A stretch of 64,000 nucleotides of DNA, from positions 544,001 through 608,000 of the forward strand of contig OZ242214.1 of NCBI GenBank assembly GCA_965206595.1, written 5' to 3'. The notes below the pieces were generated by a model, which worked only from the letters and a program-made list of their open reading frames with translations, did no database searches and was not told the DNA's origin. This document shows positions 14,201 through 34,503 of the stretch, piece by piece; positions within the stretch are counted from its first letter, which is position 1, and each line of letters begins with the position of its first letter. This stretch comes from Candidatus Latescibacterota bacterium. Lineage in GTDB: Bacteria > Latescibacterota > UBA2968 > UBA8231. Both the position numbers and the translations under genes were made by a program.

Positions 14201-15094
14201 ATGACCGCAGAACTCGAAGTGATCGCCGACGACGGCAACCTGGTAGGGGAAGGCCCGATCTGGGACGGGGAGCGCAACCGCCTGCTGTGGACGGACATCA
14301 GCAGCTCCCTCGTCTACCAGATGGACGCCGCCGGCACCAAGAGCATCATCAACCGCGACCTGGTCGTGAACGGCATCGGCCTCAATGGCGACGGCCGCCT
14401 CGTCTTTTCCGGGGCGGGCGGGCTGTTCCTTTGGAGCGGGGAAGGGGAGCACCGCAACATCGCCTCGGAGCACGAAGGGGAGGCGCTCTCCTTCAACGAC
14501 ATGATCGTCGGGCCGCAGGGGCGGGTGTACGCCGGCACCATGTACTGGGGGGAGAACGGCAAGGAAAGGGACGGCAAGCTTTATAAGTTCGGCCCGAGCG
14601 GCGTCGTCGAGGTCGTCGCCGAGGGCATCGAGCTGTCCAACGGCCTGGGTTTCAGCCCGGACGACGGGACCCTCTACCACTCCGACTCGGCGGCCCGCAG
14701 GATCTACGCATTCGACGTCGACGCGGCGACCGGCAGGCTGGAGAACCGGCGGGTGTTCGTGCAGGTGCCCGGCGACGAGGGGATCCCCGACGGCATGACC
14801 GTCGACGCCGAGGGCTTCGTCTGGAGCGCCCAGTGGTACGGCGAGCAGGTGGTCCGCTACGATCCCGACGGCAGCGTCGAGCGCCGCCTGCCGATGCCGG
14901 TGAAACAGGTCTCCGCGGTCGCCTTCGGAGGACCCGACCTCGACGAGCTGTACATCACCAGCGCCGGCGCCTCCTGGCCGAGCGACGTCGCTCCCCCGGG
15001 GTACGACTTCGCAGCGCCGAACATGGGCGGCACCCTCTTCCGGCTGCGGGCGGAGGTCAGGGGCAAGCCGGAATTCCGCGCCGCCTTCGAGTAG
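14201..15094 (+). CDS. SMP-30/gluconolactonase family protein
   Basis: GEGPIWD, FNDM, SNGLGFSPD, PDGMTVDAEG, AFGGPDLDELYIT. Confidence 0.93.
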   Translation: MTAELEVIADDGNLVGEGPIWDGERNRLLWTDISSSLVYQMDAAGTKSIINRDLVVNGIGLNGDGRLVFSGAGGLFLWSGEGEHRNIASEHEGEALSFNDMIVGPQGRVYAGTMYWGENGKERDGKLYKFGPSGVVEVVAEGIELSNGLGFSPDDGTLYHSDSAARRIYAFDVDAATGRLENRRVFVQVPGDEGIPDGMTVDAEGFVWSAQWYGEQVVRYDPDGSVERRLPMPVKQVSAVAFGGPDLDELYITSAGASWPSDVAPPGYDFAAPNMGGTLFRLRAEVRGKPEFRAAFE

Positions 15095-15106
15095 GCGAGG
15101 CAGACG

Positions 15107-15439
15107 ATGCAGCGGGTAGCGTTCGTCATGCAGGTGAAACCGGGTCGCGAGGAGGAGTACGCCCGCCGCCACCGCGAGGTCTGGCCGCAGGTGGAGGCCG
15201 ACCTGAAGCGGGCAGGCGTGCACAGGATGAGCATCTTCATGCGCGGGCGGCAGCTGTTCCTGTACATGGAAGTCGAGGACTACGCCGCGGCCTGCGAGGT
15301 CCTCGAGAACAGTCCGGAGTCGGTGCGCTGGGAGGAGTACATGGCCCCGATCATGGATAATGCCGAGGGGACCGACTACGACCCGGCGAACCCCTACCCC
15401 GAGGGGCTGCCGGAGGTCTATTTCTGGGAAGCCGGCTGA
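15107..15439 (+). CDS. rhaM: L-rhamnose mutarotase family protein
   Basis: AFVMQVKPGREEEYARRHREVWP...RWEEYMAPIM. Confidence 0.8.
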   Translation: MQRVAFVMQVKPGREEEYARRHREVWPQVEADLKRAGVHRMSIFMRGRQLFLYMEVEDYAAACEVLENSPESVRWEEYMAPIMDNAEGTDYDPANPYPEGLPEVYFWEAG

Positions 15440-15461
15440 CGGCCGGTGAGCGGGAGAGCGC

Positions 15462-16805
15462 TCAGCCCGCGGCGAGCGCCTCTTCCTGCTGCCGGCGCAG
15501 CTCGAGGGCGGGGGATTCGGCCAGCTCGACGTCGTCGCGGTTGATCATGCCGTCCTCGGGGACGTCCCGCCTGAGCACGGCCCCGCGCGAAAGCCCGACC
15601 GGCAGCAGGTTCTCCGCTCCCGCCACCGCCGCCTTTTCGAGCAGTCCGTAGAGACAGAACCCCCCCTCTCCGTCGAGGGTGGTCCCCGCCTTCAGCGGCT
15701 TCTTCGCCGCCGACACGACCTCGGCGTGCCACCCGATCGGGGCGCCGCAGGTCTGGTTGTCGAGCATGATGGTCGCCACCGAAATCGGCATCTCGTGGCC
15801 GATCCAGTGCTGCGGCCGGTAGATCATCGCGTAGTTGCTGCGCCTGCCCATGATCATGCCGATGATCTCCCCGTACGACCCCAGCGATTCGGCGGTGAAG
15901 CCGGTCGGCCCTTCGACGACGCAGTAGAGGCCGCCGCGCAGGCTGCGCTCGACCGCCGCCTCGTTCTCGTCTATGGAGCTGACCGCCTCGACCACTCCTT
16001 CCTGTGAAAGCACGCCGCCCTTGTCGCGGTGGCAGACGACGTCGGGGATGTCGCGCAGGTCGGAGCAGGGGAAGTGCATGCCGCGCACGTCCGGCACGAG
16101 GCCGGACATGTTGGCGAGACAGGCCATCTCGATGGCGTGCTTGGTGCCGTCGAGGAAGCTGCCGAACATCTGCGCGTTGTAGTCGTCCCCGGTGAAGCCG
16201 TACAGCCGCGGCACGTCGTCGGGGTTGGCCTTGCGGAACGCAGTCCTGAAGCGCGTCCCCTTGCCCGCGGCCACCACCCGGAAGCCGAGGGCGCGGGCCC
16301 AGTCCCAGAGCCCGAGGGCGACCGCGGGCTCGTCGCCGTACGCGGCGCTGTAGAGGACCCCGGCCTCGTCGGCGAGCCGTTTCAGCTGCCAGCCGACGAC
16401 GACGTCGGCCTCGACGGTCACCATCACCACGTGTTTGCCGGCGTCGATGGCGTCGCGCGCGTGGCCGGCCCCGGCCTCGACGTTGCCGGTGGCCTCGATG
16501 ACGACGTCGACCCCGCTTTCGAACAGGACCCGGGCATCCCGGGTGACTGCGAAGCGCCCGGAAGCGATGGCAGCGTCGATGGCGTCCGCTGTATCCGCCT
16601 CGATCACCTCCATATCCCCGGCGCCCCCGATGCGGAAGGCGCGCACCGCCTTGCCGGGGTCGAGCTCGGCGATGACCGCCAGGCGCATGCCCGGGGCCGC
16701 GGCCATCTGCGAGGCGATCTGGGTGCCGAAGGTACCGGCGGCGATCAGGCCGACCTCGATCGGCTCGCCGCTTTCGTCACGTTCACGCAGTCGCTGGTAG
16801 AGCAT
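15462..16805 (-). CDS. Homoserine dehydrogenase-like NAD-dependent oxidoreductase with C-terminal SAF domain
   Basis: VVMVTVEAD, GDEP, AAGKG, FLDGTKHAIEM, AKKPLKAGTTLDGEGG. Confidence 0.85.
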   Translation of the reverse strand: MLYQRLRERDESGEPIEVGLIAAGTFGTQIASQMAAAPGMRLAVIAELDPGKAVRAFRIGGAGDMEVIEADTADAIDAAIASGRFAVTRDARVLFESGVDVVIEATGNVEAGAGHARDAIDAGKHVVMVTVEADVVVGWQLKRLADEAGVLYSAAYGDEPAVALGLWDWARALGFRVVAAGKGTRFRTAFRKANPDDVPRLYGFTGDDYNAQMFGSFLDGTKHAIEMACLANMSGLVPDVRGMHFPCSDLRDIPDVVCHRDKGGVLSQEGVVEAVSSIDENEAAVERSLRGGLYCVVEGPTGFTAESLGSYGEIIGMIMGRRSNYAMIYRPQHWIGHEMPISVATIMLDNQTCGAPIGWHAEVVSAAKKPLKAGTTLDGEGGFCLYGLLEKAAVAGAENLLPVGLSRGAVLRRDVPEDGMINRDDVELAESPALELRRQQEEALAAG

Positions 16806-16811
16806 GGGCGG

Positions 16812-17585
16812 TTACTCCTCGAGGCGCTGCCAGCGCAGCACCTGCCTGGCGTGGTCGGAAAGGGAGTCCCAGAGCTCGCGGGAGAAGTGGGCTTGGGTGT
16901 TCTCGTGCTGCCAGCGGCTGAAGACCCAGGAGCTGCTCATCGCCATGCAGAGCTCGTCGCGCGGCCTGTCGGAGCGGTTGGGGGTGCCGCGGTGGATGAC
17001 GCGGTTGTCGTGAACCCACAGGGAGCCCTTGCGCAGGTTGAGCCGGCGCGAGGTGTAGCGCTCGCTGAAGGCGGCGCCGTGTCCGAAGAGGTCGTCGAGG
17101 TTTTCCGCGGGCAGCTCGCCGACGTACTGGGTGCACGGCATCACCTCGAAGCTGCCGTTCTCCTCGGAGGTGTCGCACAGAGGGAACTTGACGCCGACCT
17201 GGTAACAGGGGGTGGCGATGCCGGGGAACAGGCTGTTGATGCCGTCGCGGTGCCAGCGCTGGTAATCGCTCCCCGGCAGCGGGATGTTCGAGTCGAACAC
17301 GAACCAGACGTAGTCCTCTCCGAGGATTTCCTCGAGAAAGGCCACGAGGTCGGGGTGCTCGAAGATCTCCGGGTCGAGGAAGGGGGGCTCGTACGGCACC
17401 GGAACGTTGTAGCGGCCCCAGCCCCGGGTCGGGGGGTTCTCCCCCTGGCTGGCGATGCCGGCGTCGCGGACCGGCTCCCAGGCCTCGAGGATGCGGTCGA
17501 TCCTTTTGTGCGGGATCAGGTCCTCGAACACGGCGAGCCCGTTGATGCGGAACTGCTGGACCTTGGCGGCGGCGTCCCGGCTCAT
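16812..17585 (-). CDS. Phytanoyl-CoA dioxygenase (PhyH) family protein, tandem copy 2
   Basis: QRWHRD (HxD), ENGSFEV, HRGTPNRS; start MSRD overlaps the upstream stop codon. Confidence 0.88.
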   Translation of the reverse strand: MSRDAAAKVQQFRINGLAVFEDLIPHKRIDRILEAWEPVRDAGIASQGENPPTRGWGRYNVPVPYEPPFLDPEIFEHPDLVAFLEEILGEDYVWFVFDSNIPLPGSDYQRWHRDGINSLFPGIATPCYQVGVKFPLCDTSEENGSFEVMPCTQYVGELPAENLDDLFGHGAAFSERYTSRRLNLRKGSLWVHDNRVIHRGTPNRSDRPRDELCMAMSSSWVFSRWQHENTQAHFSRELWDSLSDHARQVLRWQRLEE

Positions 17586-18376
17586 CGGGCCTCCTCGACA
17601 CGCATCAGCCGCAGCACCTGCCTGCCGTGCTCGGGCAGCGACTCCCACAGGGCGCGGGGGAAATGGCCGGCGGTCTCCTCGTGCAGCCACCGGTTGAATA
17701 GAAAGGGGCGCGACATCGCCATGCAAAGCTCGTCGCGCGGGAGGCCGGAGCGGTTGGGAGTGCCGCGGTGGTAGTTGCGGCCGTCCTGCATCCACAGGGA
17801 GCCCTTGCGCAGGTTGAGACGGACCGGCTTGAAGGCGGGGTTCGGGTCCGCTCCCCTGCCGAGCACCTCGTCGAGGTCCTCCCGCGGCAGCACCTCCTCG
17901 GTGACGTACTGGGTGCAGGGCATCACCTCGAAGCTGCCGTTCTCCTCGCTGGTGTCGCACAAGGGAAACTTGACCCCGATGGTCGGGACCGGCGTCATGA
18001 TGCCGGGGAAGAGGTTGGCGCGGCCGTCGCGGTGCCAGTTCTGGTAGTCGGTTCCCGGCAGCGGGATGTTGGAATCGAAGTGGGTCCAGACGTAGTCGTC
18101 GCCGAGCGCCTGCCGGAGGAAGGCGACGACCGCGGGATGCTCGAAGATCTCCGGGTCGACGAAGGGCTCGCGGAAGGGGACCCGGACGTTGTAGCGGCCC
18201 CGGCCCCGGGGCGGGTTCTCCCCCTGCCTTTCGATGTCGGCGTCGCGGACCGGCACCCAGGCCTCGAGGATGCGGTCGATCTTTTCGTGCGGTATCAGGT
18301 CCTCGAAAACGGCGAACCCGTTGATGCGGAACTCGAGGACCTTGGCGTCGATGTCGTATTCTGCGGCGGGGGTCAC
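17582..18376 (-). CDS. PhyH family protein, tandem copy 1
   Basis: QNWHRD, ENGSFEV, HRGTPNRS; the GTG start is approximate. Confidence 0.88.
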   Translation of the reverse strand: MTPAAEYDIDAKVLEFRINGFAVFEDLIPHEKIDRILEAWVPVRDADIERQGENPPRGRGRYNVRVPFREPFVDPEIFEHPAVVAFLRQALGDDYVWTHFDSNIPLPGTDYQNWHRDGRANLFPGIMTPVPTIGVKFPLCDTSEENGSFEVMPCTQYVTEEVLPREDLDEVLGRGADPNPAFKPVRLNLRKGSLWMQDGRNYHRGTPNRSGLPRDELCMAMSRPFLFNRWLHEETAGHFPRALWESLPEHGRQVLRLMRVEEAR

Positions 18377-18541
18377 GGTTGTCTCAAGGTCGTTGGCAGG
18401 CGAGCTACCCTGCAAGCGGGCTCCCGGTCCGGGCGGCGGAATATAGATTCCTCTCAGAAAGGTTGACAACCGGTTCCGGGCCGGGCGGTATTTGCGCCAG
18501 CACCTATTTTGCCCCCGCATGCATCAAAGACAGGAGGTCCG

Positions 18542-19492
18542 ATGAAGGCAGTCATCGCATTCGACTTGGGGGAGGAGTACGTCGCCGATCTGCGCGCCTC
18601 TTTCCCCGAGGTCGAGTTCACCCTCGCCTACAGCGAGGAGGAGCAGCTCGCCCAGGCCCCCGACGCCGAGATCTTCTTCGGCACCATCAGCCGCGCCGCG
18701 TTTCTCGCCGCCACCCGGCTGAAGTGGTACCAGTACATCGGCATCGGGTTCGACAACGAGCTGCGCCGCGTCCCGGAGCTGCTCGACAGTCCCGTGGTCA
18801 TGACGCTGAACCGCGAGACCCACGTGGTCCCGATAGCCGATCACGTCTTCGCCATGATCCTGTCGTTCGCCCATTGCATCCCCGGGTTGATCGAGGACCA
18901 GAATGCCCGCCGCTGGGACCCGCACAAGTGGACGGTCGCCGAGCTGGCCGGCTCGACCATGGGGGTGCTGGCCATGGGGGACATCGGCAGGGCGGTGGCG
19001 CGCCGGGCGCAGGGGTTCGACATGGAGGTCTACGCCGTCGACATCGCCCAGATGGAGCCGCCGCCGGGAGTGCGCGAGGTGTGGGGCCCCGAACGCCTCG
19101 ACGACCTGCTGAAGATCTCGGACTGGTTCGTGGTCACGGCGCCGCGCACCCCGCAGACCGAGGGGCTGATCGACGCCCGCCGGTTCGGGATCATGAAGCC
19201 CAGCGCCCACCTGATCGTCGTCTCGCGCGGCGGCATCGTCGACGAGGAGGCCCTCGCCGCTGCCCTCGCCTCGGGAGAGATCGCCGGCGCCGGCTGCGAC
19301 GCCCTGTGGCCGGAACCGCCGGAGCCGGACAGCCCCCTGTGGGACCTTCCCAACATGCTGATCTCGCCGCACTCGTCCGCCCATTCCCCGCAGCTTTGGG
19401 AGCGGCGCAGGCAGATCTTCAAGGAGAACCTCGGCCGCTACCTCGCGGGAGAGCCCCTGAGGTTCGTTTGCGACAGAAAGAGAGGATACTGA
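18542..19492 (+). CDS. D-2-hydroxyacid dehydrogenase
   Basis: MGDIG Rossmann motif, SRGGIVDE, EPP, ISPHSS; GGAGG RBS upstream. Confidence 0.9.
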   Translation: MKAVIAFDLGEEYVADLRASFPEVEFTLAYSEEEQLAQAPDAEIFFGTISRAAFLAATRLKWYQYIGIGFDNELRRVPELLDSPVVMTLNRETHVVPIADHVFAMILSFAHCIPGLIEDQNARRWDPHKWTVAELAGSTMGVLAMGDIGRAVARRAQGFDMEVYAVDIAQMEPPPGVREVWGPERLDDLLKISDWFVVTAPRTPQTEGLIDARRFGIMKPSAHLIVVSRGGIVDEEALAAALASGEIAGAGCDALWPEPPEPDSPLWDLPNMLISPHSSAHSPQLWERRRQIFKENLGRYLAGEPLRFVCDRKRGY

Positions 19493-19499
19493 AACCGCC

Positions 19500-20243
19500 A
19501 TGGCACTTACCGAAGCGATCGTCGTCAACTGGAGGGAATCGCGCACCTACCTCGGGCACGACAACGCCGTCGTGTCGCCGATACTGACCCCGGAGGGAGG
19601 AGACAACGGCATCTCCTCCTGCCTGCAGTACATCGGCGCCTTCGCCCGGCACTCGCTGCAGGGGCGCAAGAACTCCGACAACCACGCCCACGAGAAAGCC
19701 GAGCAGTACTACTACATCCTCTCCGGGGAAGGAGAGGTGCTGATCGGCGATGAGCGCCACCCGGTGCGCGAAGGCACGGTCACCTACTTCCCGCCCGGCA
19801 CGCCGCACCAGTACTTCAACGAAAGCACCGATGCCTGGGCCGAGCACCTGATCATCACCTTCCCGACGGAGCGGACCGGCAGCGCCCCGCGGGTGCTCAA
19901 CTGGCGCGACGTGACCCCGGCCTTCGGGGTCCACGGCGACGCGGTGACCTGGAAGCTGCTGGAATCGGTCCACGAGCCCGAGCCCGGCACCGACCGGCCC
20001 TGCCTGCTGAAGTCCTACTACCTGGCGAGGCAGGCGGTCATGCGCGGCAAGGCCTCGGATTTCCACGTCCACGACGACAAGGAGCAGGTCTACTACATCC
20101 TCGAGGGAGAGGGGCTGGTGATGGCGGACCGGTGGGTGCACCGGGTCGGCGAGGGGGACACCGTGTACCTGCCGCGCGGCGTCGGCCACCAGATAATCAA
20201 CGAGGGGTACGACGGCTGGCTGTCGTACCTCGTGGTGAGCTGA
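19500..20243 (+). CDS. Bicupin protein
   Basis: Two cupin repeats: HAHEKAEQYYYILSGEG and HVHDDKEQVYYILEGEG. Confidence 0.85.
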   Translation: MALTEAIVVNWRESRTYLGHDNAVVSPILTPEGGDNGISSCLQYIGAFARHSLQGRKNSDNHAHEKAEQYYYILSGEGEVLIGDERHPVREGTVTYFPPGTPHQYFNESTDAWAEHLIITFPTERTGSAPRVLNWRDVTPAFGVHGDAVTWKLLESVHEPEPGTDRPCLLKSYYLARQAVMRGKASDFHVHDDKEQVYYILEGEGLVMADRWVHRVGEGDTVYLPRGVGHQIINEGYDGWLSYLVVS

Positions 20244-20254
20244 GGGAGAAGACC

Positions 20255-21298
20255 ATGATCACCCGGCACCCTGACACACTTCGCGACGACATCGCCCGCG
20301 TGCTGCGCGCCGCCGCCGCCGACGGCCGCAACGTCGACATCGTCGCCGACCACCTCAAAGGGGCGGAGCTGTGCGGCGTCCAGACCCACGGGATCTTCCA
20401 GATTCCGTCGTACATCGAGCAGATCGATCAGAAGGAGCTGATCCCAGACGCCTGGCCCGAGGTGCTCAGCGACTCCGGCAACCGCGCCGCGGTCACCGGC
20501 AACGTCGGCTTCGGCCACGCCGCGGCCGACTTCTCGGTGCGGCTGGCGGTGCAGAAGGCCCGCGACCACGGCCTCGCCCTCGTCGGGCTCGTCAGGGCCA
20601 ACCACATAGGCCGCCTCGGCCATTACGCGGAGATCGCCGCCGGGCAGGGGATGATCTCGATGATCTGGGGATCGGGGTACTCGGTGACCAGCGCCCGCGC
20701 CGCGCCGTTCGGGGGCCGCGACCGCGTCCTCGACACCAACCCCTACTGCGTCGGCATCCCCGCCGGGGAGGGCAGGCCCCCGGTGATCGTCGACTTCGCC
20801 ACCACCCAGGGCTCCGCGGTGAAGGTGATGAACGCCCAGCGCCGCGGCGAAGAGCTGCCTCCCGGGATGATCGTCGACAGCGAGGGCAGGCCGAGCATCG
20901 ACCCCGGAGACTTCTACGGCGGCGGGGCGCTCGCCCCTTTCGGCGGCCACAAGGGGTACGCGATCATGACCGTCGTCGAGCTGATGGGCAGGGTGTTCGC
21001 CGGGGCCGACGGCCACGCCGTCGAAGGGGAGGGGACGCCGATGATGCGTCACCAGGGAGTGACTTTCCTCGTTATGCGGGCCGACGCCCTCGGGCCGATG
21101 GATGAGTTCCTGACCCGCGCCGGCACCACCCTCGACGGCATCAGCGGCAGCGAGCCCGCGGCCGGATTCGGCGAGGTCCTCTACCCCGGGCAGAAGGAAG
21201 AGGCAACGCGGCGCAGGTGGGCCGAAGGCATTCCGCTGGCCGAGGATGTCTGGGAGATGTTCACCCAGGCGGCGCGCAAGCTCGGGGTCGAGCTTTAG
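20255..21298 (+). CDS. Ldh_2 family oxidoreductase (malate/L-lactate/ureidoglycolate dehydrogenase-like)
   Basis: GVQTHG, NHIGRLGHY, TNPYC, DFATT, PFGGHKGY. Confidence 0.9.
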   Translation: MITRHPDTLRDDIARVLRAAAADGRNVDIVADHLKGAELCGVQTHGIFQIPSYIEQIDQKELIPDAWPEVLSDSGNRAAVTGNVGFGHAAADFSVRLAVQKARDHGLALVGLVRANHIGRLGHYAEIAAGQGMISMIWGSGYSVTSARAAPFGGRDRVLDTNPYCVGIPAGEGRPPVIVDFATTQGSAVKVMNAQRRGEELPPGMIVDSEGRPSIDPGDFYGGGALAPFGGHKGYAIMTVVELMGRVFAGADGHAVEGEGTPMMRHQGVTFLVMRADALGPMDEFLTRAGTTLDGISGSEPAAGFGEVLYPGQKEEATRRRWAEGIPLAEDVWEMFTQAARKLGVEL

Positions 21299-21492
21299 CG
21301 AAGCAGCAGCGCTAAACGCAGGACCCGGGGCCCGGGCGCGGGAGGGTGCGGCGAGCGTGGCCGCTTAGGCCGGTGGTGTCAGCGCCGGAGCGGGCGAATC
21401 TCCGGGGATCGCGGCCGGTCCGGGGGTAAGCGCCGGAAGCGCGGCGAACCTCCCCGGTTCGTCCGGCGGGGCTCACCGAAGGCGGGGAAAGC

Positions 21493-22494
21493 TCAGGCGT
21501 AGAGATCGGCCACGTACTCTTCGTAGCCGTTGTAGAGCAGGGTCGGGCGCCACTCCCAGATGCCGATCATGCGCTCCCGCGCCTGCGACCAGCGCGGGTG
21601 GGGCACGTCGGGATTGACGTTGAGCCAGAAATCGTACTCTCGGGGATTTACGATGTTCCAGAAGTTGTCCGGCTGCTCGGCGACGAACTCGATGCGGACG
21701 ATCGATTTGATGCTCTTCATCCCGTACTTCCAGGGCACGATCAGCCGTATCGGGGCGCCGTGCTGCACCGGCAGCTCGTGCCCGTAGATCCCGGTCACCA
21801 TCATGGTCAGCTCGTTGACCGCCTCGGGCATCGACAGCCCCTCGAAGTACGGCCAGGGCAGTTCCGGGGTGTTCCACTGACCGCGGGCGTTCTCGGTGTC
21901 GAAGAAGCTGGTGAAACGGACGAACTTCGCCGAGGACAGCGGCTTGACGAGGTCGATCAGGGCCCGCATCGGAAACCCCGTCCACGGCACCGCCATCGAC
22001 CAGGCCTCGACGCAGCGGAGGCGGTAGAGCCGCTCCTCCAGCGGCATGCGCCGGACCAGGTCGTCGACGTCCCAGGTCGCCGGCTTCTCGACGAGCCCTG
22101 ATACCTCCACCGTCCATGGCCGCGTCTCGAAGTCGTCGACGAACAGGTGCACCTGCTTCGACTGCGTGAACTCGTAGAAGTTGTTGTAGCGGCCCGCGAC
22201 CTCCTCCTCGGTCAGGGGGCGGTCCAGGGTGCCGAACTCGGGGTTGAGCTCCGCAGGGTAGAGGGGATTGCTCCCCTCGGGCGCGGCCGGCTCCTGCAGC
22301 GTCGGCAGCGCCGTTTCACCTTCCGGTTCCGGCTCGACGGGAGCGATGATGCGATCGCTGCCGCAGCCGGCGGCCAGCCCCAGTCCGGCGAGCCCGGCCG
22401 AACGCAGGAACCTGCGCCGGTTCAGGAAGACCTCTTCCGGGGTCGCTTCCCGTTCCGGGATTTCCCAGCCTCGCCTGCGCCTTATGCCTGTCAT
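21493..22494 (-). CDS. msrP: Protein-methionine-sulfoxide reductase catalytic subunit MsrP
   Basis: Tat motif NRRRFL, YNNFYEF, RLRCVEAWS, HGAPIRLIVPWKYGMKSIK, NVNPDVPHPRWSQA. Confidence 0.93.
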   Translation of the reverse strand: MTGIRRRRGWEIPEREATPEEVFLNRRRFLRSAGLAGLGLAAGCGSDRIIAPVEPEPEGETALPTLQEPAAPEGSNPLYPAELNPEFGTLDRPLTEEEVAGRYNNFYEFTQSKQVHLFVDDFETRPWTVEVSGLVEKPATWDVDDLVRRMPLEERLYRLRCVEAWSMAVPWTGFPMRALIDLVKPLSSAKFVRFTSFFDTENARGQWNTPELPWPYFEGLSMPEAVNELTMMVTGIYGHELPVQHGAPIRLIVPWKYGMKSIKSIVRIEFVAEQPDNFWNIVNPREYDFWLNVNPDVPHPRWSQARERMIGIWEWRPTLLYNGYEEYVADLYA

Positions 22495-24585: not shown

Positions 24586-25035
24586 TGTGTTCCTCAAGAA
24601 AACCAAACAGACGGCCCGTTTGTTCCCGATAAGCGCCTATGTATGGAACCGCGATGTTTCGAACGACCCAAAGGGCGGCGAGGCCAGCGGCGGAAAAAAC
24701 CAGGAATACAGCGCCAAGGCGCCAGTCGAAGTTGAAAAAGAACGCCTGAATTCCCACAAGGAGCAGGACGTTTCCCACGATCTGGACGAAGAAGAATGAA
24801 AGGAATCCGGAAAGTTCACTGCTGGACACATACGACGCCGATGAACGCGAAGGAAAGGTGGAGGAGCGTGTCCCCGTTGCCTCCCGACTTGGCCGTGTCA
24901 AGGAATGACCGAATGATCTGCGGATTGACGAGGAGCAACGCTGTGCTTCCGGAGGTCATCAGGAAAAGCAGAAGCAGACGAGACGCCTCGGGTCGCACTA
25001 ATCGACCGGCAAATCTCCAATCACTTTTCATTTTG
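24586..25035 (-). pseudogene. ABC exporter transmembrane-domain fragment
   Basis: LLLVNPQIIRSFLDTA and FFVQIVGNVLLLVG...DWRLG...LFGFLEEHI lie in two frames; cut by IS630. Confidence 0.65.
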
Positions 25036-25090
25036 GCAGCTAAGCAAGTCCTCACCAGTACTCCCTCTGCAGTACGCAGGTAAGGAAAAA

Positions 25091-25281
25091 GGCTCGTCAG
25101 TAGAATTTGTGGGTGAATGTGGCTCGGGCAAATCACCAAGCTGATGGAATGAAGCGATTTGGAGTGCCTTGAAGGTGCGGAATCCGAAGGCTTTTCTCAC
25201 CGTCAGATTCCATTTCAGGTTCAAGCCCTCGACAATGCCGTTGTTGAACTGCTTCTTGGCCCTGGACCAATTGAGGATGAG
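25091..25281 (-). mobile_element. ISL3-family 3' end remnant
   Basis: NNGIVEGLNLKWNLTVRKAFGFRT; terminal GGCTCGTCAGTAGAAT; near-identical to 29698-29890. Confidence 0.85.
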
Positions 25282-25284
25282 CGG

Positions 25285-25586
25285 TGGGCGGCCCTGCTCG
25301 CCCGGGTGTTTTCCGCCGACCTCAGCGGCTGCCCGGCCTCCCGGCAGAACGCACTGTCCTGGGTGGCGGTCGCCCTTCGGAGATCCGATGGGACCCATCC
25401 GGCGACGACGTCTGCGGCTTGCGGTAGATGGCCGTCAGTCCCATCTGTCGCATCAATCGACGCACGCGCTTCGTGGCCGCCCTGACCGATCCGGCCTCGA
25501 TCCGGACCTGTCTGGAGGGGGTAGGGCTGCCGTCGGTGCCCCCGCCGAGGGCCCCGCCTCAGCCGCAGTTCGAGTTCGCCGCCTGA
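25285..25586 (+). mobile_element. IS91-like transposase C-terminal remnant interrupted by an IS3-like fragment
   Basis: WAALLARVFSADLSGCP ... VAALTDPASIRTCLEGVGLPSVPPPRAPP; the minus strand at about 25385-25467 reads VRRLMRQMGLTAIYRKPQTS (IS3 OrfB-like). Confidence 0.6.
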
Positions 25587-25885: not shown

Positions 25886-27532
25886 TCACCGCCATTCGTC
25901 AACGGACACGGTGGCCGCGTGGTTGGCCCCGAAGATGCGCCAGTAGCCGTTCGTTTCGCCTCCGACGACGACGACCTGGATCTGGTTCTTCGGCCACATG
26001 CGGATGAGCTCGTCCTCTTCTGCTTCCAGCATCGTGGCCCAGGGCTCCTGGCCGACGAGCGCCCTCGGCTCGACGTAGTTCTCGATCAGCTGGTAATCCC
26101 AGTAGACGCCGGCTCGCATCGTGCCGTTCTCGTGGACCCAATCGACGAGCTCGTCGACGCTGTGGAAACCGCCGCGGTCGACGAACTGACGGGCCGTGAT
26201 CGGGTCGAGGACGAAGGTGGGCGCTTCGTGCGGGTCCATGCCCCGCAGCATCTGGATGACGTGAGTCTGCCAGTGCTTTTTGCGCAGCCCGAGGGTGAAG
26301 GCGGTGGATCGACATCCCGAGAATACACTGACGGTGCTGTCGCCCTTGTCGAAGCCCTGGCGGACGTGGAAGGGATCCCACGGACTGCGCTCTTCGTTCT
26401 CGGCGTAGCAGATACTGCCGTAGGCGTAGCCGTTGCCCTGCGAGCCGAGGTAGGTGTGCAGCGGCAGCGAACCGCCCTGGCCGTTCTGTGACAGCAGGCC
26501 GTAGGCGCGCCCGATGGTGGCGTTTGCGTGGTTGTAGGGTCCCATGGCGCCGACGCCCCGGTTCATGCCGATCTCTTCGCGGAGGGGCCCGTTGACGACG
26601 GCCATGGCCGCCGCCGAGCTGGTCGTGCTCGGGCGCGCTGTGACCTGCGTCGATGCCAGCGCGAGAATGGCGGGAAAGTATTCCGGCCGTGCACCGGCCA
26701 TGACGGCGTTGACGGCGACCTTCTCTACCGTGTACTCCCAGGCCTCGCGCGGGCCCGTGGGCCGCATCTGCCCGACTACCTGATCGGGATCCCGGCTCGT
26801 GCCTCTGAGCATGGCCTCGACACGGGCCTCGGTGGGCAGCACGATCGGCAGCTTGTCGGTCCAGTTTTCGCGCAGGAAGAGCTCGTGGAGGTGGTCTTCC
26901 GAATCGGGCTCGCACAGTCGCGGCGTGGATCGATCGAAGGTGACGACCTCCGTCTCCCCGGCGCTGACCGGGCGGGTCAGCGCCTCGATCACTTCCGTCA
27001 TGAACGGACGTCCGGTGACAGGATCGTCGCCGTCGACGTACGCCCGCAGCTCCTCCGGCGACTTGCCCATCACCGGCTGAGGGACGAAGACGAACCGCTG
27101 CTTCGGCATGCCCCGCGCCAGCGCCTGCGCCCGCGCCAGGGGTTCGAAGATGTCGGTGTGGACGGAGGCAGTCGGCACTCCGTATTCGGTTTCAACAGTG
27201 ATGCACTGGTCGGCGACCGCCGGCGCACACGTGCTTCAGTGGCCGACGCCGATGACGGCGGCATCTCCCTGCTGTTTGATCTCCTCGTAGAGCGCGTCGT
27301 CGCGCTGGGTGTAGACGTTCGACTTGCGGCGCACTTCCACGTTGATCCCCGGGCAGTGCTCGGTGAACCAGTCCCCCATTTGGCGCATGAGGATATCGCC
27401 GTCGTCGAAACGGCAGTCGACGAGGTAGACGGTACCGCCTTCGAGCGAGTCGGGACGAGGGGCCATGCCCAACTGCTCCGTCTTCGGCGGGTGCCCCATC
27501 GGGTTGAGGACCGTGATCCTGTTGTCGTCCAT
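25886..27532 (-). CDS. UGSC-family selenoprotein fused to its usual partner domain (548 aa; Sec at TGA 27236-27238)
   Basis: ORF 27236..27532 ends AVIGVGH-TGA and continues in frame as STCAPAV...GVPTASVHTD into ORF 25886..27178, giving a UxxC motif. The downstream domain has WTDKLPIVLPTE, EKVAVNAVMAG and ANATIGRA. Confidence 0.8.
27202..27227 (-). promoter_or_regulatory. Candidate bacterial SECIS hairpin
   Basis: The mRNA after the UGA reads AGCACGUG-UGCGC-CGGC-[GGUC]-GCCG-ACCA-GUGCA. The apical loop starts with G, 17 nt after the UGA. Folded by eye. Confidence 0.55.
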
Positions 27533-27643
27533 CGGTCTTTCTCCTTAGTAGTACGGGTTGACCTGAGATGGAAGGAAGATCTGCAGGTACCGTGAAGCGG
27601 TGTGGTCGAGGCGCCGTGTCTCCTGTCCTGTCCCCGGCGGACG

Positions 27644-28543
27644 TCACCCCGCAGCCGCGGGCTTCTGTCCGGCGGCGTCCAGGCGGCGCTTGGCCTCGGC
27701 ATACGTCTCGGGAGAGAGAGGTCCCTTCGAGATACCTGCGATGTTCTCTTCGAGGTGATCGACGCGGGTCGTTCCCACGATGTTGGTGTTGGAGTGAGGG
27801 TGGGTGAGGGTGTAGCGCAGCATGAACGTGGTGCGGCTCTCCCCCTCGACCAGCTCGTCGAGACGGGCCGTCTCGAACACCTTCCACCTGTCCGCTCGCT
27901 TGTCTCCCGAGGCAGCATCCGGCTCACCCTGTGCCACCCCGCCGCGGATGACGATGCCGGTCCCCGCCTGCGCAGCCCTGGTGATCCACTCTTCGTGTTG
28001 CCGCTCCAGGGCCGAGTAAGGGATCTGGAACACGTCGAACACTCCCCACCCGAGGAAGGTCGGCAGGTGCGGCAGGGTCGTCGACACGCCAATCCAGCGC
28101 ACCTTGCCCTGCTCGCGCATATCCTCCAGCACTGTCACCAGATCGCCGGCCTTGCACTCCTCCACCGAGGGATTGTGGTACTGCATCAGGTCCACGTAAT
28201 CCGTCCGCAGCCGTCCCAGGCTTTCGTGCAGTCCCCGGAAAGCGTTTTCCCGTGTCCAGATGTGGTCGCCGCCGCCGGGAGGGCATCCGCACTTGGTGGC
28301 CAGGTAGAATTCCGAGCGGCGTCCCGAGAGATGCCTGCCGATCTGTTCTTCCGCCGGGCTCGCCCAGTGCAGGCCGTAGTCGTTGGCGGTATCCACGAAA
28401 TTGATCCCCGCGTCCAGTACCGAGTTCAGCAGCACCTCCCAGCGGTCGTCGTCGAGGCCGCTGCGCAGTGCGGTGCCGAACCCGAGGCGGGTGATTTCCA
28501 GGCCGGTGCGCCCCAGCTTCGCGGTTGGAATGGCTGATGTCAT
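27644..28543 (-). CDS. Aldo/keto reductase
   Basis: LGRTGLEITRLGFGT, NFVDTANDYG, LATKCG, SLGRLRTDYVDLMQYH, GKVRWIGVS. Confidence 0.93.
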   Translation of the reverse strand: MTSAIPTAKLGRTGLEITRLGFGTALRSGLDDDRWEVLLNSVLDAGINFVDTANDYGLHWASPAEEQIGRHLSGRRSEFYLATKCGCPPGGGDHIWTRENAFRGLHESLGRLRTDYVDLMQYHNPSVEECKAGDLVTVLEDMREQGKVRWIGVSTTLPHLPTFLGWGVFDVFQIPYSALERQHEEWITRAAQAGTGIVIRGGVAQGEPDAASGDKRADRWKVFETARLDELVEGESRTTFMLRYTLTHPHSNTNIVGTTRVDHLEENIAGISKGPLSPETYAEAKRRLDAAGQKPAAAG

Positions 28544-29697: not shown

Positions 29698-30918
29698 GGC
29701 TCGTCAGTAGAATTCGTGGGTGAATTGTGGCTCGGGTAAATCGCCAAGCTGATGGAATGAAGCGATTTGGAGTGCCTTGAAGGTGCGGCATCCGAATGCT
29801 TTTCTCCCTGTCAGATTCCATTTCAGGTTCAAGCCCTCGACCATGCCGTTGTTGAACTGCTTCCTGGCCCTGAACCAATTGAGGATGAGCTCTTGGTGAC
29901 GCCGCAGCATTCCGGCGATGTCTTTCATCGGTTCGATGTTGCTTCTCATCGTACGGAAACACCCGCGCTGGAGGAACTTCTCAGCCCACGCGGAGTAGGT
30001 GTAGTCCCAGAAGCGCTGGAAGTCCTCCTTGAGCAGGTAGGCTCTGACCGTCCGCAGGTTCATCTTCAATAGCTCCGACAGCTTCAAGCCTTGGGAGTCG
30101 CTTCTGGTCGAGGAAACGGGTCGGCTCCTGCTCGCCGCCGGCTTCCTGCTTGCGCCGGTGCTCCTGCTCCCGTTCGGTAAAGCCGTCGTTCAAGGCCTTC
30201 TTCGTCCGCTTCTCGCCCATCCACAACAGGCGGCGGCGGTGGGGGTCGATCTGGTACAGCAACGTCAGATAATGAGGCCCCTTACGATACTGGATTTCAT
30301 CCACGCCGAGGGCCGTGACCTGGTCGAGGCAGCGATGAGCGAGCCCATAGTCCACGACGTACTGGACGGAGTGGTAGACCTTGTCCCAACGGGTCCGGAA
30401 GGAACGCGCCACCTCGATCCACGACAGTTTTTTGGCCCCCTGGGCCAGGAAGCAGCGGTAGAGGTCGGTCAGGTGGTGCTTGCCCGTGCTCCAGGGGACC
30501 TTCTCGACGACCACCCGGCCGCAGGCTTTGCAGGCAACCCGGCGCATGCGATACACCAGAAAGACCGGAAACCCCCAGAGGGGAACAAACTCGAACAGCC
30601 GGGCCTCGGGGGCCGTGTCATAGGTGGGGGCCAAGTGACCGCAGCCGCTGCACGCGCCCCGGGAGTTTTTCCGTGGCCTTATCCTCACCATTATCCTTCC
30701 GTGCCGGTCAAAATGACTGCCCTCAAACACAAACCGCTTGAAGGTCGTGCACCGGTTTAGTACCGTGATCAGGCGCATCATTCCCTCCACAGGTAGTTGG
30801 GTTCCGTCTTGGTGGACTGTCCCAACATACCGGGGGATGATGCGCCTGGGCTACCTGGCCTCCTCTATTCCCATCGCCGCAGCCTCCCCTCCTCACCCAC
30901 AGATTCTCCAGAGGAGCC
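29698..30918 (-). mobile_element. ISL3-family IS with internally deleted/frameshifted transposase
   Basis: Termini GGCTCGTCAG... and ...CAGAGGAGCC (imperfect inverted repeats starting GGCTC); CSGC/CKAC zinc finger, LGVDE, AYLLKE, VEGLN. Confidence 0.88.
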
Positions 30919-32802: not shown

Positions 32803-33636
32803 ATGAAAACCGCGCTGATCCCCGAACAGATCGACCACCACCGCCGCGAAGGCTGGACCATCGTCGAGGGCTTTCTCTCCCCGGAAGAGCTCGCGGAGCT
32901 CAGCGACGCGGTCGACGATGCAGTGGCGCGCATGGGGGATGCCAAGCTGACCGGCGAAGGCAACGAGCGCATCAAGAAAAACGAGGGGGGGAGCGAGTAC
33001 TACGACCGCGTCTTCCTGCAGCGCCTCAACCTCTGGAAGATCGACGCCACCGTGAGGAAGTACATGCTCGCCCCGGAGCTGGGGGAGATGCTCTGCCGGT
33101 TCGAGGGGATCGACGGCATCCGCGTCTGGCACGACCAGACCCTGCAGAAGGGCCCCTGGGGAAACCCGAGCTCCTGGCATATCGACGTGCCGGCCTGGTC
33201 CTTCTGTTCGCCGCACGCGATCTCGATCTGGATCGCCCTCGACGACGCCACCATCCAGAACGGCTGCATGTACTACATCTCGGGATCCCACCGCGAGGCG
33301 GTGTACGAGAAGCGAGGGGGATTCGGGCCCAACGTCGGCGCCATTTTCGAGGAGTATCCCGAGTGGCGCGGCCGCGACCCGGTCGCCGTCACCCTGAAGG
33401 CGGGGGACGCCGCCCTCCACAACGGGCTGATGGCCCACGCCGCCGGCCCCAACATGACGCCGCGCTCACGCCGCGCCATGACCTGCGCCTACATGCCGGA
33501 CGGGGCCACCTTCAACGGCAACCAGAACATCCTCTCCGACGCGCAGATAGCGAAGCTCGAGATCGGGGACCTGCTCGACGACGAGAGCCAGGTGCCGCTG
33601 GTCTGGTCGAAGGAGATGGCCGCGGCCAACCGGTAG
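32803..33636 (+). CDS. PhyH family dioxygenase
   Basis: WHID, WIALDDATIQNGCM, SGSH, HAAGPN, RRAM. Confidence 0.92.
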   Translation: MKTALIPEQIDHHRREGWTIVEGFLSPEELAELSDAVDDAVARMGDAKLTGEGNERIKKNEGGSEYYDRVFLQRLNLWKIDATVRKYMLAPELGEMLCRFEGIDGIRVWHDQTLQKGPWGNPSSWHIDVPAWSFCSPHAISIWIALDDATIQNGCMYYISGSHREAVYEKRGGFGPNVGAIFEEYPEWRGRDPVAVTLKAGDAALHNGLMAHAAGPNMTPRSRRAMTCAYMPDGATFNGNQNILSDAQIAKLEIGDLLDDESQVPLVWSKEMAAANR

Positions 33637-33699
33637 CTTCCCCGCCCCTCAGGGCGCCACCGGTTCCATTTACTGAATACAATCTGATACAGTCCCGAA

Positions 33700-34503
33700 T
33701 CAGCCGGCCGTTGGCTGCTCCGCCTCATCCACCAGTCCTCCCGCTGCCACCCACTCCTCGTATTCCCGCTGGCCCACCTCGTCCAACGGGTAGTACCTGG
33801 ACAGGGCGCCCCCCTGCTGCAGCTTCATGCGCACGAAAACTTCCTTCTCGTCGCGTGAACCCCCGATCTCGAGGATCTTCGGGATCAGCCGCGGCGGCAC
33901 TGCAATGGCGCCGCCGTCGTCGGCCATGATCACGTCCCCGGGATGGACCCGCACCTTGCCGCAGGCGATCGGCAGGTTGACGTCGGCGGGGAACATGTTG
34001 AGATGCCCGGCTCCCCCGGTGGCCACCCCGACAGACCAGACCGGCACCTTCAGATCGTTGAAGATCGGCGCCGAATCCCTTATCGCCGCGTCGATCACCA
34101 CGCCGGCTCCTCCCCGGGCCTTGAAGTAGGTCATCAGCATCTCGCCGAAGCAGCCGGTCGCCAGGTCCCCGCGGCCGTCGACCACGATGACGTCCCCCTC
34201 CTGGACGTAGTCGAACACCTCCCACAGGGCGGTGCGCTTCTCCCCTTCCTCCTCCCCTTCGATGACGGACGCTCCCTTTTCCTCTCCCGGGACCTGGTAC
34301 CCCTTCATCAGGTCCTCGCGCATGGGCAGGAAGCGCAGGGTGAGGGCCGGGCCGGCGATCTTGCTGCCGGGAACCCGGGCAACCGGTCCTTCCATGAAGG
34401 TGCGGCGCACGCCGAGGCCCTCCATGGTCGAGGTGACGGTATCGACGCCGATCCTTCCCAGCGCCTCCACTACTTCCCTGGGGGGGCGTTTGATGTCATT
34501 CAT
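33700..34503 (-). CDS. RraA/HMG-CHA aldolase family protein
   Basis: GPALTLRF, GDVIVVD, FGEML, IRD, VHPGDVIMADDGG. Confidence 0.88.
   Translation of the reverse strand: MNDIKRPPREVVEALGRIGVDTVTSTMEGLGVRRTFMEGPVARVPGSKIAGPALTLRFLPMREDLMKGYQVPGEEKGASVIEGEEEGEKRTALWEVFDYVQEGDVIVVDGRGDLATGCFGEMLMTYFKARGGAGVVIDAAIRDSAPIFNDLKVPVWSVGVATGGAGHLNMFPADVNLPIACGKVRVHPGDVIMADDGGAIAVPPRLIPKILEIGGSRDEKEVFVRMKLQQGGALSRYYPLDEVGQREYEEWVAAGGLVDEAEQPTAG

Follow-up and report, generated by a model that had tools for sequence, protein, structure and literature searches.

The 64,000-nucleotide stretch analyzed here (the window; positions 544,001 to 608,000 of contig OZ242214.1, from a Candidatus Latescibacterota bacterium) carries on its minus strand, at 27532..25889, what appears to be a single gene for a 548-residue selenoprotein, in which an in-frame UGA at codon 99 is recoded to selenocysteine (Sec). 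We place the probability of this reading, which is drawn from sequence comparisons, at roughly 90%. The predicted product joins an N-terminal domain of the UGSC type to a conserved C-terminal domain for which there is no family model. Taken whole, a recoded selenoprotein gene, together with a reductase mechanism proposed for its product, is very likely the best explanation of the data.

The gene starts with an ATG at 27532-27530, and a direct reading of the sequence places a Shine-Dalgarno-like AAGGAG (27541..27546, minus strand) 8 nt 5' of it. The first 98 codons end in ...AAVIGVGH and are followed by the TGA at 27238-27236. The first-pass annotation, a reading of the letters of this stretch, had pointed to precisely this arrangement of a 98-codon open reading frame (ORF) ending at GVGH-TGA-STC with about 450 more open codons behind it; the count is 449, beginning with S-T-C-A-P-A-V-A-D-Q-C and extending to ...SVDEWR. 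The true stop is the TGA at 25886..25888 (minus strand), where the aligned homologues all end in ...WR, and both the translation and the lengths of the homologues mark 25889..27532 as the complete coding sequence of 548 codons. With the UGA (27236..27238) read as Sec, residue 99 falls in the context GVGH-U-STCAPAVADQCITVETEYGVPTASVHTDIFEPLAR, which creates a U-S-T-C motif; Cys102 (27227..27229, minus strand), invariant in 50/50 alignment rows, is the presumed resolving Cys of this UxxC. The open frame by itself means little, because the DNA is GC-rich and the ORF list holds many long shadow ORFs. TGA is an ordinary stop in this genome, as the adjacent aldo/keto reductase gene ends in one (27646-27644). 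It is the comparison with other genomes that raises the observation above chance: homology flanks the TGA on either side, codon 99 is TGA or TGC in 80/80 loci, and the hairpin is invariant in the TGA forms only.

Homology was expected to pass through the TGA with Cys or Sec opposite it, and both expectations were borne out. One uninterrupted match to the Pfam UGSC family (PF24696; E = 4.6e-28) covers residues 7-166 and crosses codon 99. In a word-seeded search of 5.8 billion proteins, which gave 5,872 matches among 8,000 scored candidates, the nearest proteins (84-100% identity) are all called as 407-436 amino acids and start past the TGA; the next tier (~60% identity, 99% coverage) has lengths of 540-569 amino acids. 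The full-length homologues aligned with the gene (546-557 amino acids, ~60% identity) read GVGH-C-STC in 16/16 cases and, in a larger alignment, in 49/49. The only invariant Cys positions in the 50 rows (query plus 49) are 99, which is Sec in the query, and 102. Standard gene callers, as the first-pass annotation had foreseen, split the gene: the ORF list gives 27532..27236 (98 amino acids) and a GTG-started piece at 25886..27178 (430 amino acids), and public databases list exactly these two pieces as proteins of their own (clusters of 30 and 56 members), with the name "hypothetical protein" where they are named and with adjacent locus tags in one metagenome-assembled genome (MAG). Such records favor two separate genes, a 98-residue peptide ending at a real stop at codon 99 and a 430-residue protein begun at the GTG at 27178. 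We consider this very improbable, given the single Pfam domain that crosses the stop, the conservation in homologues of the residues between TGA and GTG (STCAPAVADQC...TEYG), the Cys at the stop position in 49/49 homologues, the hairpin conserved in TGA forms only, and the full Sec machinery of the genome.

The alternation of Sec and Cys at codon 99 extends across many lineages. Among 61 genomes of relatives, 13 of the same class, the window's own included, match the gene over its full length (65-100% identity) and have a single in-frame TGA each; GH-TGA-STC is read in 14/14 loci, namely, the 13 intact ones and one split copy. In the latter (L028, G002:C3:6426572-6428214), which comes from the same genus, two overlapping pieces in different frames cover residues 1-138 (including the TGA) and 136-548; the break near residue 137 is a frameshift or else an indel of the assembly. 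At the species level, a one-genome-per-species collection gave 478 related loci, and the best 80 of these have TGA (51 loci) or TGC (29 loci) at codon 99. The Sec forms are found in MAGs labelled Latescibacterota (the nearest at 97, 94, and 84%), Chloroflexota/Anaerolineae, Rokubacteria/Methylomirabilota, Gemmatimonas, Poribacteria, Binatia, and Acidimicrobiales. The Cys forms belong mostly to Alpha- and Betaproteobacteria, such as Neorhizobium, Bradyrhizobium, Chelativorans, Sphingomonas, and Ramlibacter.

This distribution also bears on the reliability of the sequence itself. The window derives from a single-contig assembly of an uncultured organism, and the apparent frameshift near residue 137 in one relative (G002) illustrates how the TGA might have arisen through faulty sequencing or assembly or through a recent nonsense mutation, leaving a pseudogene of a Cys-form gene. 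The chance of this is almost negligible: the TGA is kept in 51/80 loci of many lineages, in a DNA run of independent origin, and in contigs of RNA libraries, and beyond the TGA the frame is unbroken and evolves under purifying selection (229 invariant degenerate columns, 13 orthologues). The stretch or a part of it is present in 20 public runs from nine studies. A contig from a DNA run of a different study spans 26417-27700 with 0 differences, and three sponge metatranscriptome libraries gave contigs that run across the TGA with 27236-27238 unchanged. The metatranscriptome contigs cover the gene in patches, one of them with a single difference in 179 nt, a synonymous change of TGT to TGC at Cys102. 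Since DNA can be carried over into libraries of this type, the RNA-library contigs speak for a genuine TGA and are neither a measure of transcript level nor proof of translation. One DNA run from elsewhere has a 21-nt insertion behind 27547, just 5' of the ribosome-binding site, which represents a strain variant in the 5' leader.

The second line of evidence is a putative Sec insertion sequence (SECIS) inside the reading frame. The first-pass annotation had noted a hairpin 17 nt downstream of the TGA whose apical loop starts with G, and this description proved accurate. The apical stem-loop, CGGC-GGUC-GCCG, lies at 27211..27222 on the minus strand (stem 27222-27219/27214-27211, loop 27218-27215); it starts 13 nt past the UGA. 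If the U of the UGA is numbered 1, the stem-loop takes up nt 17-28 and its loop GGUC nt 21-24, and exactly 17 nt separate the UGA from the first loop G. A G-containing loop at this distance falls within the 16-37 nt between UGA and apical loop given for bacterial SECIS elements in the available part of PMC10778597. The 4-bp stem CGGC/GCCG closing GGUC is kept in the consensus fold of 12 orthologous 63-nt segments. Across the Sec forms (51 loci plus the window), the loop is GGUC in 52/52 and the whole 12-mer is identical in 50/52. Of the two variants, one (L054) is a C-to-U change that keeps a G.U pair at the cost of an Ala-to-Val change, and the other (L098) is a compensatory swap of G-C to C-G.

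The hairpin also stands out at synonymous sites. Over 229 invariant degenerate codon columns of 13 orthologues, the mean pairwise synonymous difference is 0.51, and the fourfold-degenerate codons P104-A105-V106-A107 (CCG GCG GTC GCC) show zero synonymous change; the lowest five-column window of the whole gene is 104-110, at 0.056. In the 29 Cys forms, by contrast, codons 104-107 vary freely, GGTC being found in 6/29 and the 12-mer in 0/29, and the mean stem pair probability is 0.80 for the Sec forms versus 0.03 for the Cys forms.

The host genome has the apparatus to use such a signal. A search of its 7.05 Mb recovered selD (368 bits), selA (539 bits), selB (338 bits), and the tRNA-Sec gene (selC), all four above curated cut-offs, and ARAGORN called a tRNA-SeC with anticodon TCA; the selA/selB/selC/selD set is complete, in line with the expectation that Sec machinery would be present. 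The genome's own selD (L001, G000:C1:6566458-6567381) has an in-frame TGA (...KTCG-TGA-AAK), so SelD is a second selenoprotein of the organism. UGA99 would be recoded by SelB and tRNA-Sec under the direction of the predicted hairpin. The conservation at codon 99, the hairpin, the machinery, and the DNA-run and RNA-library contigs thus contradict both the two-gene and the error or pseudogene explanations.

The N-terminal UGSC-like domain (residues 7-166; 27035..27514, minus strand) scores 98.9 bits on PF24696 against a gathering threshold of 25 and aligns with profile positions 1-159 of 172. When it is compared with a canonical small selenoprotein of the UGSC family, the identity is 31% and the two Sec positions coincide. 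The AlphaFold model of the full-length protein, a step that the first-pass annotation had recommended, is confident and has two domains (predicted local distance difference test [pLDDT] 87.7, predicted template modelling score [pTM] 0.85). Sec99 is placed in it between a strand (91-97) and a helix (102-116), and the N-terminal domain is predicted to adopt a flavodoxin-like alpha/beta fold. Structural comparisons of residues ~28-193 point to flavodoxin- or Rossmann-like proteins, including CheY receivers, B12-binding domains, and lumazine synthase (VIA Z 8-10.9), in a ranking that was made over Foldseek's top 1000 chains and so depends on Foldseek; thioredoxin is not among the best 50 matches drawn from these chains. 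An extra Cys at codon 110 (27203-27205), eight residues past C102, is seen in Sec forms of the Latescibacterota/Chloroflexota group (A-D/E-Q/H-C; loci L043-L066). The position is Ala or Gly in Rokubacteria-type Sec forms and in nearly all Cys forms, and among the 50 alignment rows only the query has Cys there. Cys110 may be a third redox residue.

The C-terminal domain (residues ~195-548; 25889..26950, minus strand) has no Pfam match and is confidently modelled, reaching pLDDT 93.5 and pTM 0.92 when modelled alone. It is marked by the motifs WTDxLPxxxPT, AVNAVMAG, NGP, ANATIGRA, AENEE, and D-x-W-R. No Pfam family other than UGSC was found at E <= 1 for this domain and its distant members, and it is likewise unmatched in 54 diverse members. 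A protein-atlas search with the domain recovered only unnamed clusters of 353-371 amino acids. A convincing fold relative was also not found in the PDB, the best VIA Z being 4.0 over 48,161 chains; typical unmatched models reach Z 7-8 in the same comparison, and a best Z of 4.0 for a predicted model does not prove a new fold. Foldseek against the PDB gave nothing at E <= 1e-3 for the domain and no clear match for the whole model, and a PDB sequence profile search with the whole protein found no solved homologue (best E 1.4, to CO dehydrogenase). A domain that is modelled with confidence and yet matched no solved structure makes a good target for structure determination.

Sequence searches indicate that this domain is widespread. 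HMMER over 1.84 billion cluster representatives returned 4,711 at E <= 1e-3, of which 510 are at E <= 1e-30, the 4,711 being clusters at 50% identity. All 23 distant full-length representatives keep T225, D226 (>= 90% of rows), P233, M278-A279-G280, G315-P316, R342, E378, and D545. In some distant homologues (P0131, P0133, P0136, and P0218), Met occupies the Sec/Cys position (e.g., GHMDTL, GIMSNC), and others (P0153, P0161, P0181, P0233, and P0266) have signal-peptide-like N-termini; the sequences suggest that the superfamily has exported, non-redox branches.

The contexts in which the C-terminal domain recurs offer pointers to function. In 14 same-class genomes, it is a paralogue that matches best, and it aligns with residues ~205-410 only. 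One such ORF (L039, 476 amino acids) has the same C-terminal domain, with 47% identity over residues 212-405 (E = 4e-45), behind a different N-terminus, which matches 95 PDB sequences at E <= 1; the 60 listed are all thioredoxins, the best at 8.4e-4. This thioredoxin-fused architecture is very large: all 8,000 of the 8,000 scored candidates fall at E <= 1e-10, CxTC lies within the first 40 residues in 116/116 top matches of 460-500 amino acids, and NCBI names these proteins "thioredoxin family protein." The next gene past the thioredoxin/C-domain gene, in 5/5 loci examined, is an ORF of ~170 amino acids with an in-frame TGA (...GLAD-U-GSCTTC...), a small UGSC gene that scores 157.3 bits on the NCBIfam model NF041046, above the cut-off of 125. 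The window gene is therefore a Rosetta-stone fusion of both cassette partners, the C-domain gene and the adjacent small UGSC gene. The view of the first-pass annotation that a UGSC domain is fused here to its partner domain is thus upheld by separate, adjacent genes for both parts in all five of these same-class loci.

A third component emerges from gene neighborhoods, clustered for the best 80 loci plus the window. A ~310-amino-acid paralogue of thioredoxin reductase (TrxR), with a Pyr_redox_2 match, a CASC motif, and 316 bits on TIGR01292 (cut-off 343), lies within 5 kb of 23/29 Cys-form loci, mostly adjacent and on the same strand. No other neighbor conserved across lineages was found in this set. 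CoA-transferase, Zn-alcohol dehydrogenase, AMP-binding, malonyl-CoA decarboxylase, GntR, and ABC transporter genes were considered as partners and set aside, each being near at most 11 loci in a pattern that looks like lineage synteny.

These associations allow a mechanism to be proposed, for which we see about an even chance on the present comparative grounds: the protein would be a reductase whose C-terminal domain holds the substrate, with electron delivery by Sec99/Cys102 and recharging by a TrxR-type enzyme. Sec99 would act as nucleophile or electron donor, Cys102 would resolve the intermediate to a selenenyl-sulfide, and NAD(P)H would re-reduce the latter via a flavoprotein of the TrxR type. 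This flavoprotein could be a dedicated neighbor, as in the Cys-form operons, or part of the general cellular thioredoxin system, which is the likely source here. More tentatively, and with somewhat less than even odds, the C-terminal domain could be the catalytic module of a large and so far unrecognized enzyme family (the 4,711 clusters plus the thioredoxin-fused family) with a fold unrepresented in the PDB, driven by TrxR paralogues and fed by interchangeable dithiol or selenol-thiol carriers, which would be UGSC-like domains or thioredoxins in fusion with it or UGSC selenoproteins encoded separately.

Several observations weigh against parts of this interpretation. At the level of the RNA signal, the fold of the single sequence (76 nt around the UGA) is unremarkable (z -1.43), so that the RNA folding check named in the first-pass annotation says little for the sequence by itself. 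Covariation in RNAalifold is near zero, with just the one G.U and the one compensatory variant, and Rfam at E <= 10 gave no match other than two chance rows. The RNA-library contigs, which can hold DNA, cannot show a single translated product. As for family membership, the gene scores 70.3 bits on the equivalog model NF041046, below its cut-off of 125, and its motif is U-S-T-C rather than the literal U-G-S-C, the general UxxC pattern being kept. A Cys-form homologue that NCBI names "UGSC family (seleno)protein" (P0014) scores 62.4 bits on the same model, also below 125. In terms of mechanism, the C-terminal domain has no invariant Cys (C407 is present in 44/50 rows), a TrxR paralogue is near only 2/51 Sec-form loci, and the best TrxR-type gene of the organism's own genome has 42% identity and lies megabases away. 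Finally, the N-terminal Cys pair is kept in 5/23 and missing in 18/23 distant full-length representatives, indicating that the C-terminal domain can work without the redox center of the N-terminal domain.

The last point is the main support for a different account of the same selenoprotein, in which the UxxC is not the catalytic reductant. The C-terminal domain would then be self-sufficient, possibly a non-redox enzyme or binding module, and the N-terminal domain a structural or regulatory appendage (e.g., a redox switch) that only some lineages have equipped with Cys or Sec. The 18 representatives lack the Cys pair yet retain the invariant C-domain residues, some of them have signal-peptide-like N-termini, and the top Foldseek rows for the C-terminal domain, weak as they are (E = 1.3e-3), are class I fumarate hydratases, i.e., hydro-lyases. 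The likeness to the latter is unconvincing, with a template modelling (TM) score of ~0.2 at a root mean square deviation of ~17 A and, in VIA, Z 3.5-3.6 over just 85-90 residues; such Fe-S hydro-lyases bind their cluster through three Cys, and the C-terminal domain has no invariant Cys in the alignments. Moreover, two dithiol modules that are unrelated to each other have become attached to the C-terminal domain on independent occasions, UGSC-like and thioredoxin-like (the latter with CxTC in all 116 top matches), the UGSC-like module also occurs as a separate gene adjacent to the thioredoxin/C-domain gene, and most Cys forms are accompanied by the dedicated TrxR paralogue. Sec is also costly and is typically retained at catalytic redox sites. 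We hence regard the appendage account as unlikely.

If the broader scheme with interchangeable carriers holds, it would represent a new NAD(P)H-dependent reductase system, and a selenoprotein family that is among the most abundant in the environment would gain a function. The fusion, the thioredoxin-fused paralogue, and the TrxR neighbor turn "unknown function" into a testable electron-transfer scheme, for which the Cys-form operons of the culturable Neorhizobium, Bradyrhizobium, and Sphingomonas provide possible test organisms. There are also consequences for annotation, because this gene and 51 of its 80 closest loci are selenoproteins that are logged as "hypothetical protein" pieces of 98 and ~430 amino acids. 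Since standard pipelines store such split pieces, the Sec forms of the family go uncounted. The term "hidden" selenoprotein used in the first-pass annotation is apt for Sec-using genomes; elsewhere it does not apply, as NCBI already labels the common Cys versions of the fused ~550-amino-acid form "UGSC family (seleno)protein."

Within the window, the immediate neighbors of the gene are the aldo/keto reductase, which recurs only in the two closest relatives, and a GFO/IDH/MocA oxidoreductase. Broken pieces of ISL3-family transposases (25021-25398 and 29704-30790) flank the block formed by these two genes and the selenoprotein gene. The 3' parts of both transposases share a 180-nt direct repeat with 91% identity (25118-25297/29726-29905), and a 36-nt direct repeat with one mismatch (25471-25506/28602-28637), which has only these two copies in the window, brackets the aldo/keto reductase and selenoprotein pair. 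The repeat-flanked block may be a mobile or rearranged segment. Genes of the oxidoreductase and sugar-acid type abound at 14201-22494 and 32803-34503, including SMP-30/gluconolactonase, a DRL-type oxidoreductase, three PhyH dioxygenases, a bicupin, an Ldh_2 dehydrogenase, a molybdopterin oxidoreductase, and an RraA-like aldolase; none of them recurs beside the selenoprotein in other lineages in the clustering of the 80 loci.

Parallels to known systems can be drawn at several levels. The recoding signal resembles the SECIS of enterobacterial fdhF in being an in-frame hairpin just 3' of the UGA with a GGUC apical loop; the Salmonella fdhF element is printed in PMC4489274, the available text of which states that the "GGUC hairpin identity" matters. 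Counted from the sequence in that text, the fdhF loop occupies nt 22-25, against nt 21-24 here. The two differ in that the upper stem here comprises just 4 conserved bp and in that neither a conserved lower stem nor a conserved bulged U was found in the RNAalifold consensus.

At the level of mechanism, a parallel is offered by the glycine and D-proline reductases. There, a partner protein presents the substrate to a selenoprotein with a UxxC/CxxU motif, whose attack leaves an Se-S bond that thioredoxin and a TrxR encoded nearby reduce again. These enzymes serve only as a working analogy: no sequence or fold relation to them and no pyruvoyl-forming partner turned up, no comparison having been aimed at them. 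Another parallel is the two-gene cassette of a ~476-amino-acid thioredoxin-module/C-domain protein followed by a small UGSC gene. It shares with the window gene the same C-terminal domain and the same kind of Sec module, and it differs in that the UGSC-like module is fused ahead of the C-terminal domain here and the thioredoxin module is absent.

A further comparison is with the UGSC family itself (PF24696, NF041046; the "UGSC-containing protein" of Zhang & Gladyshev), with which the N-terminal domain shares the UxxC motif and the alternation of Sec and Cys. The canonical member is a stand-alone protein of ~170 amino acids, whereas here the domain makes up the first third of a 548-residue protein. 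The function of UGSC is given as unknown in passages of PMC2398784, PMC1976440, PMC9312934, and PMC13188914, which include reviews as recent as 2026, and literature searches found no functional study of UGSC among the matches listed. In metagenomes from ocean and freshwater, UGSC proteins are reported as one of the selenoprotein families of highest abundance. The available text of PMC2398784 describes the family, its UxxC motif, and its abundance and suggests a thioredoxin-like fold for it, in contrast to the flavodoxin-like fold of the present model. It also reports, from Global Ocean Sampling data, a "UGSC/Unknown_1" fusion that, like the window gene, combines a UGSC-type domain with a conserved domain of unknown function; "Unknown_1" also occurs on its own, and its identity with the C-terminal domain described here could not be confirmed. 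As both the UGSC family and a UGSC fusion are already in print, the window gene does not represent a new kind of protein. What is new here is the evidence linking its modules to each other and the C-terminal domain, with a fold apparently unrepresented among solved structures.

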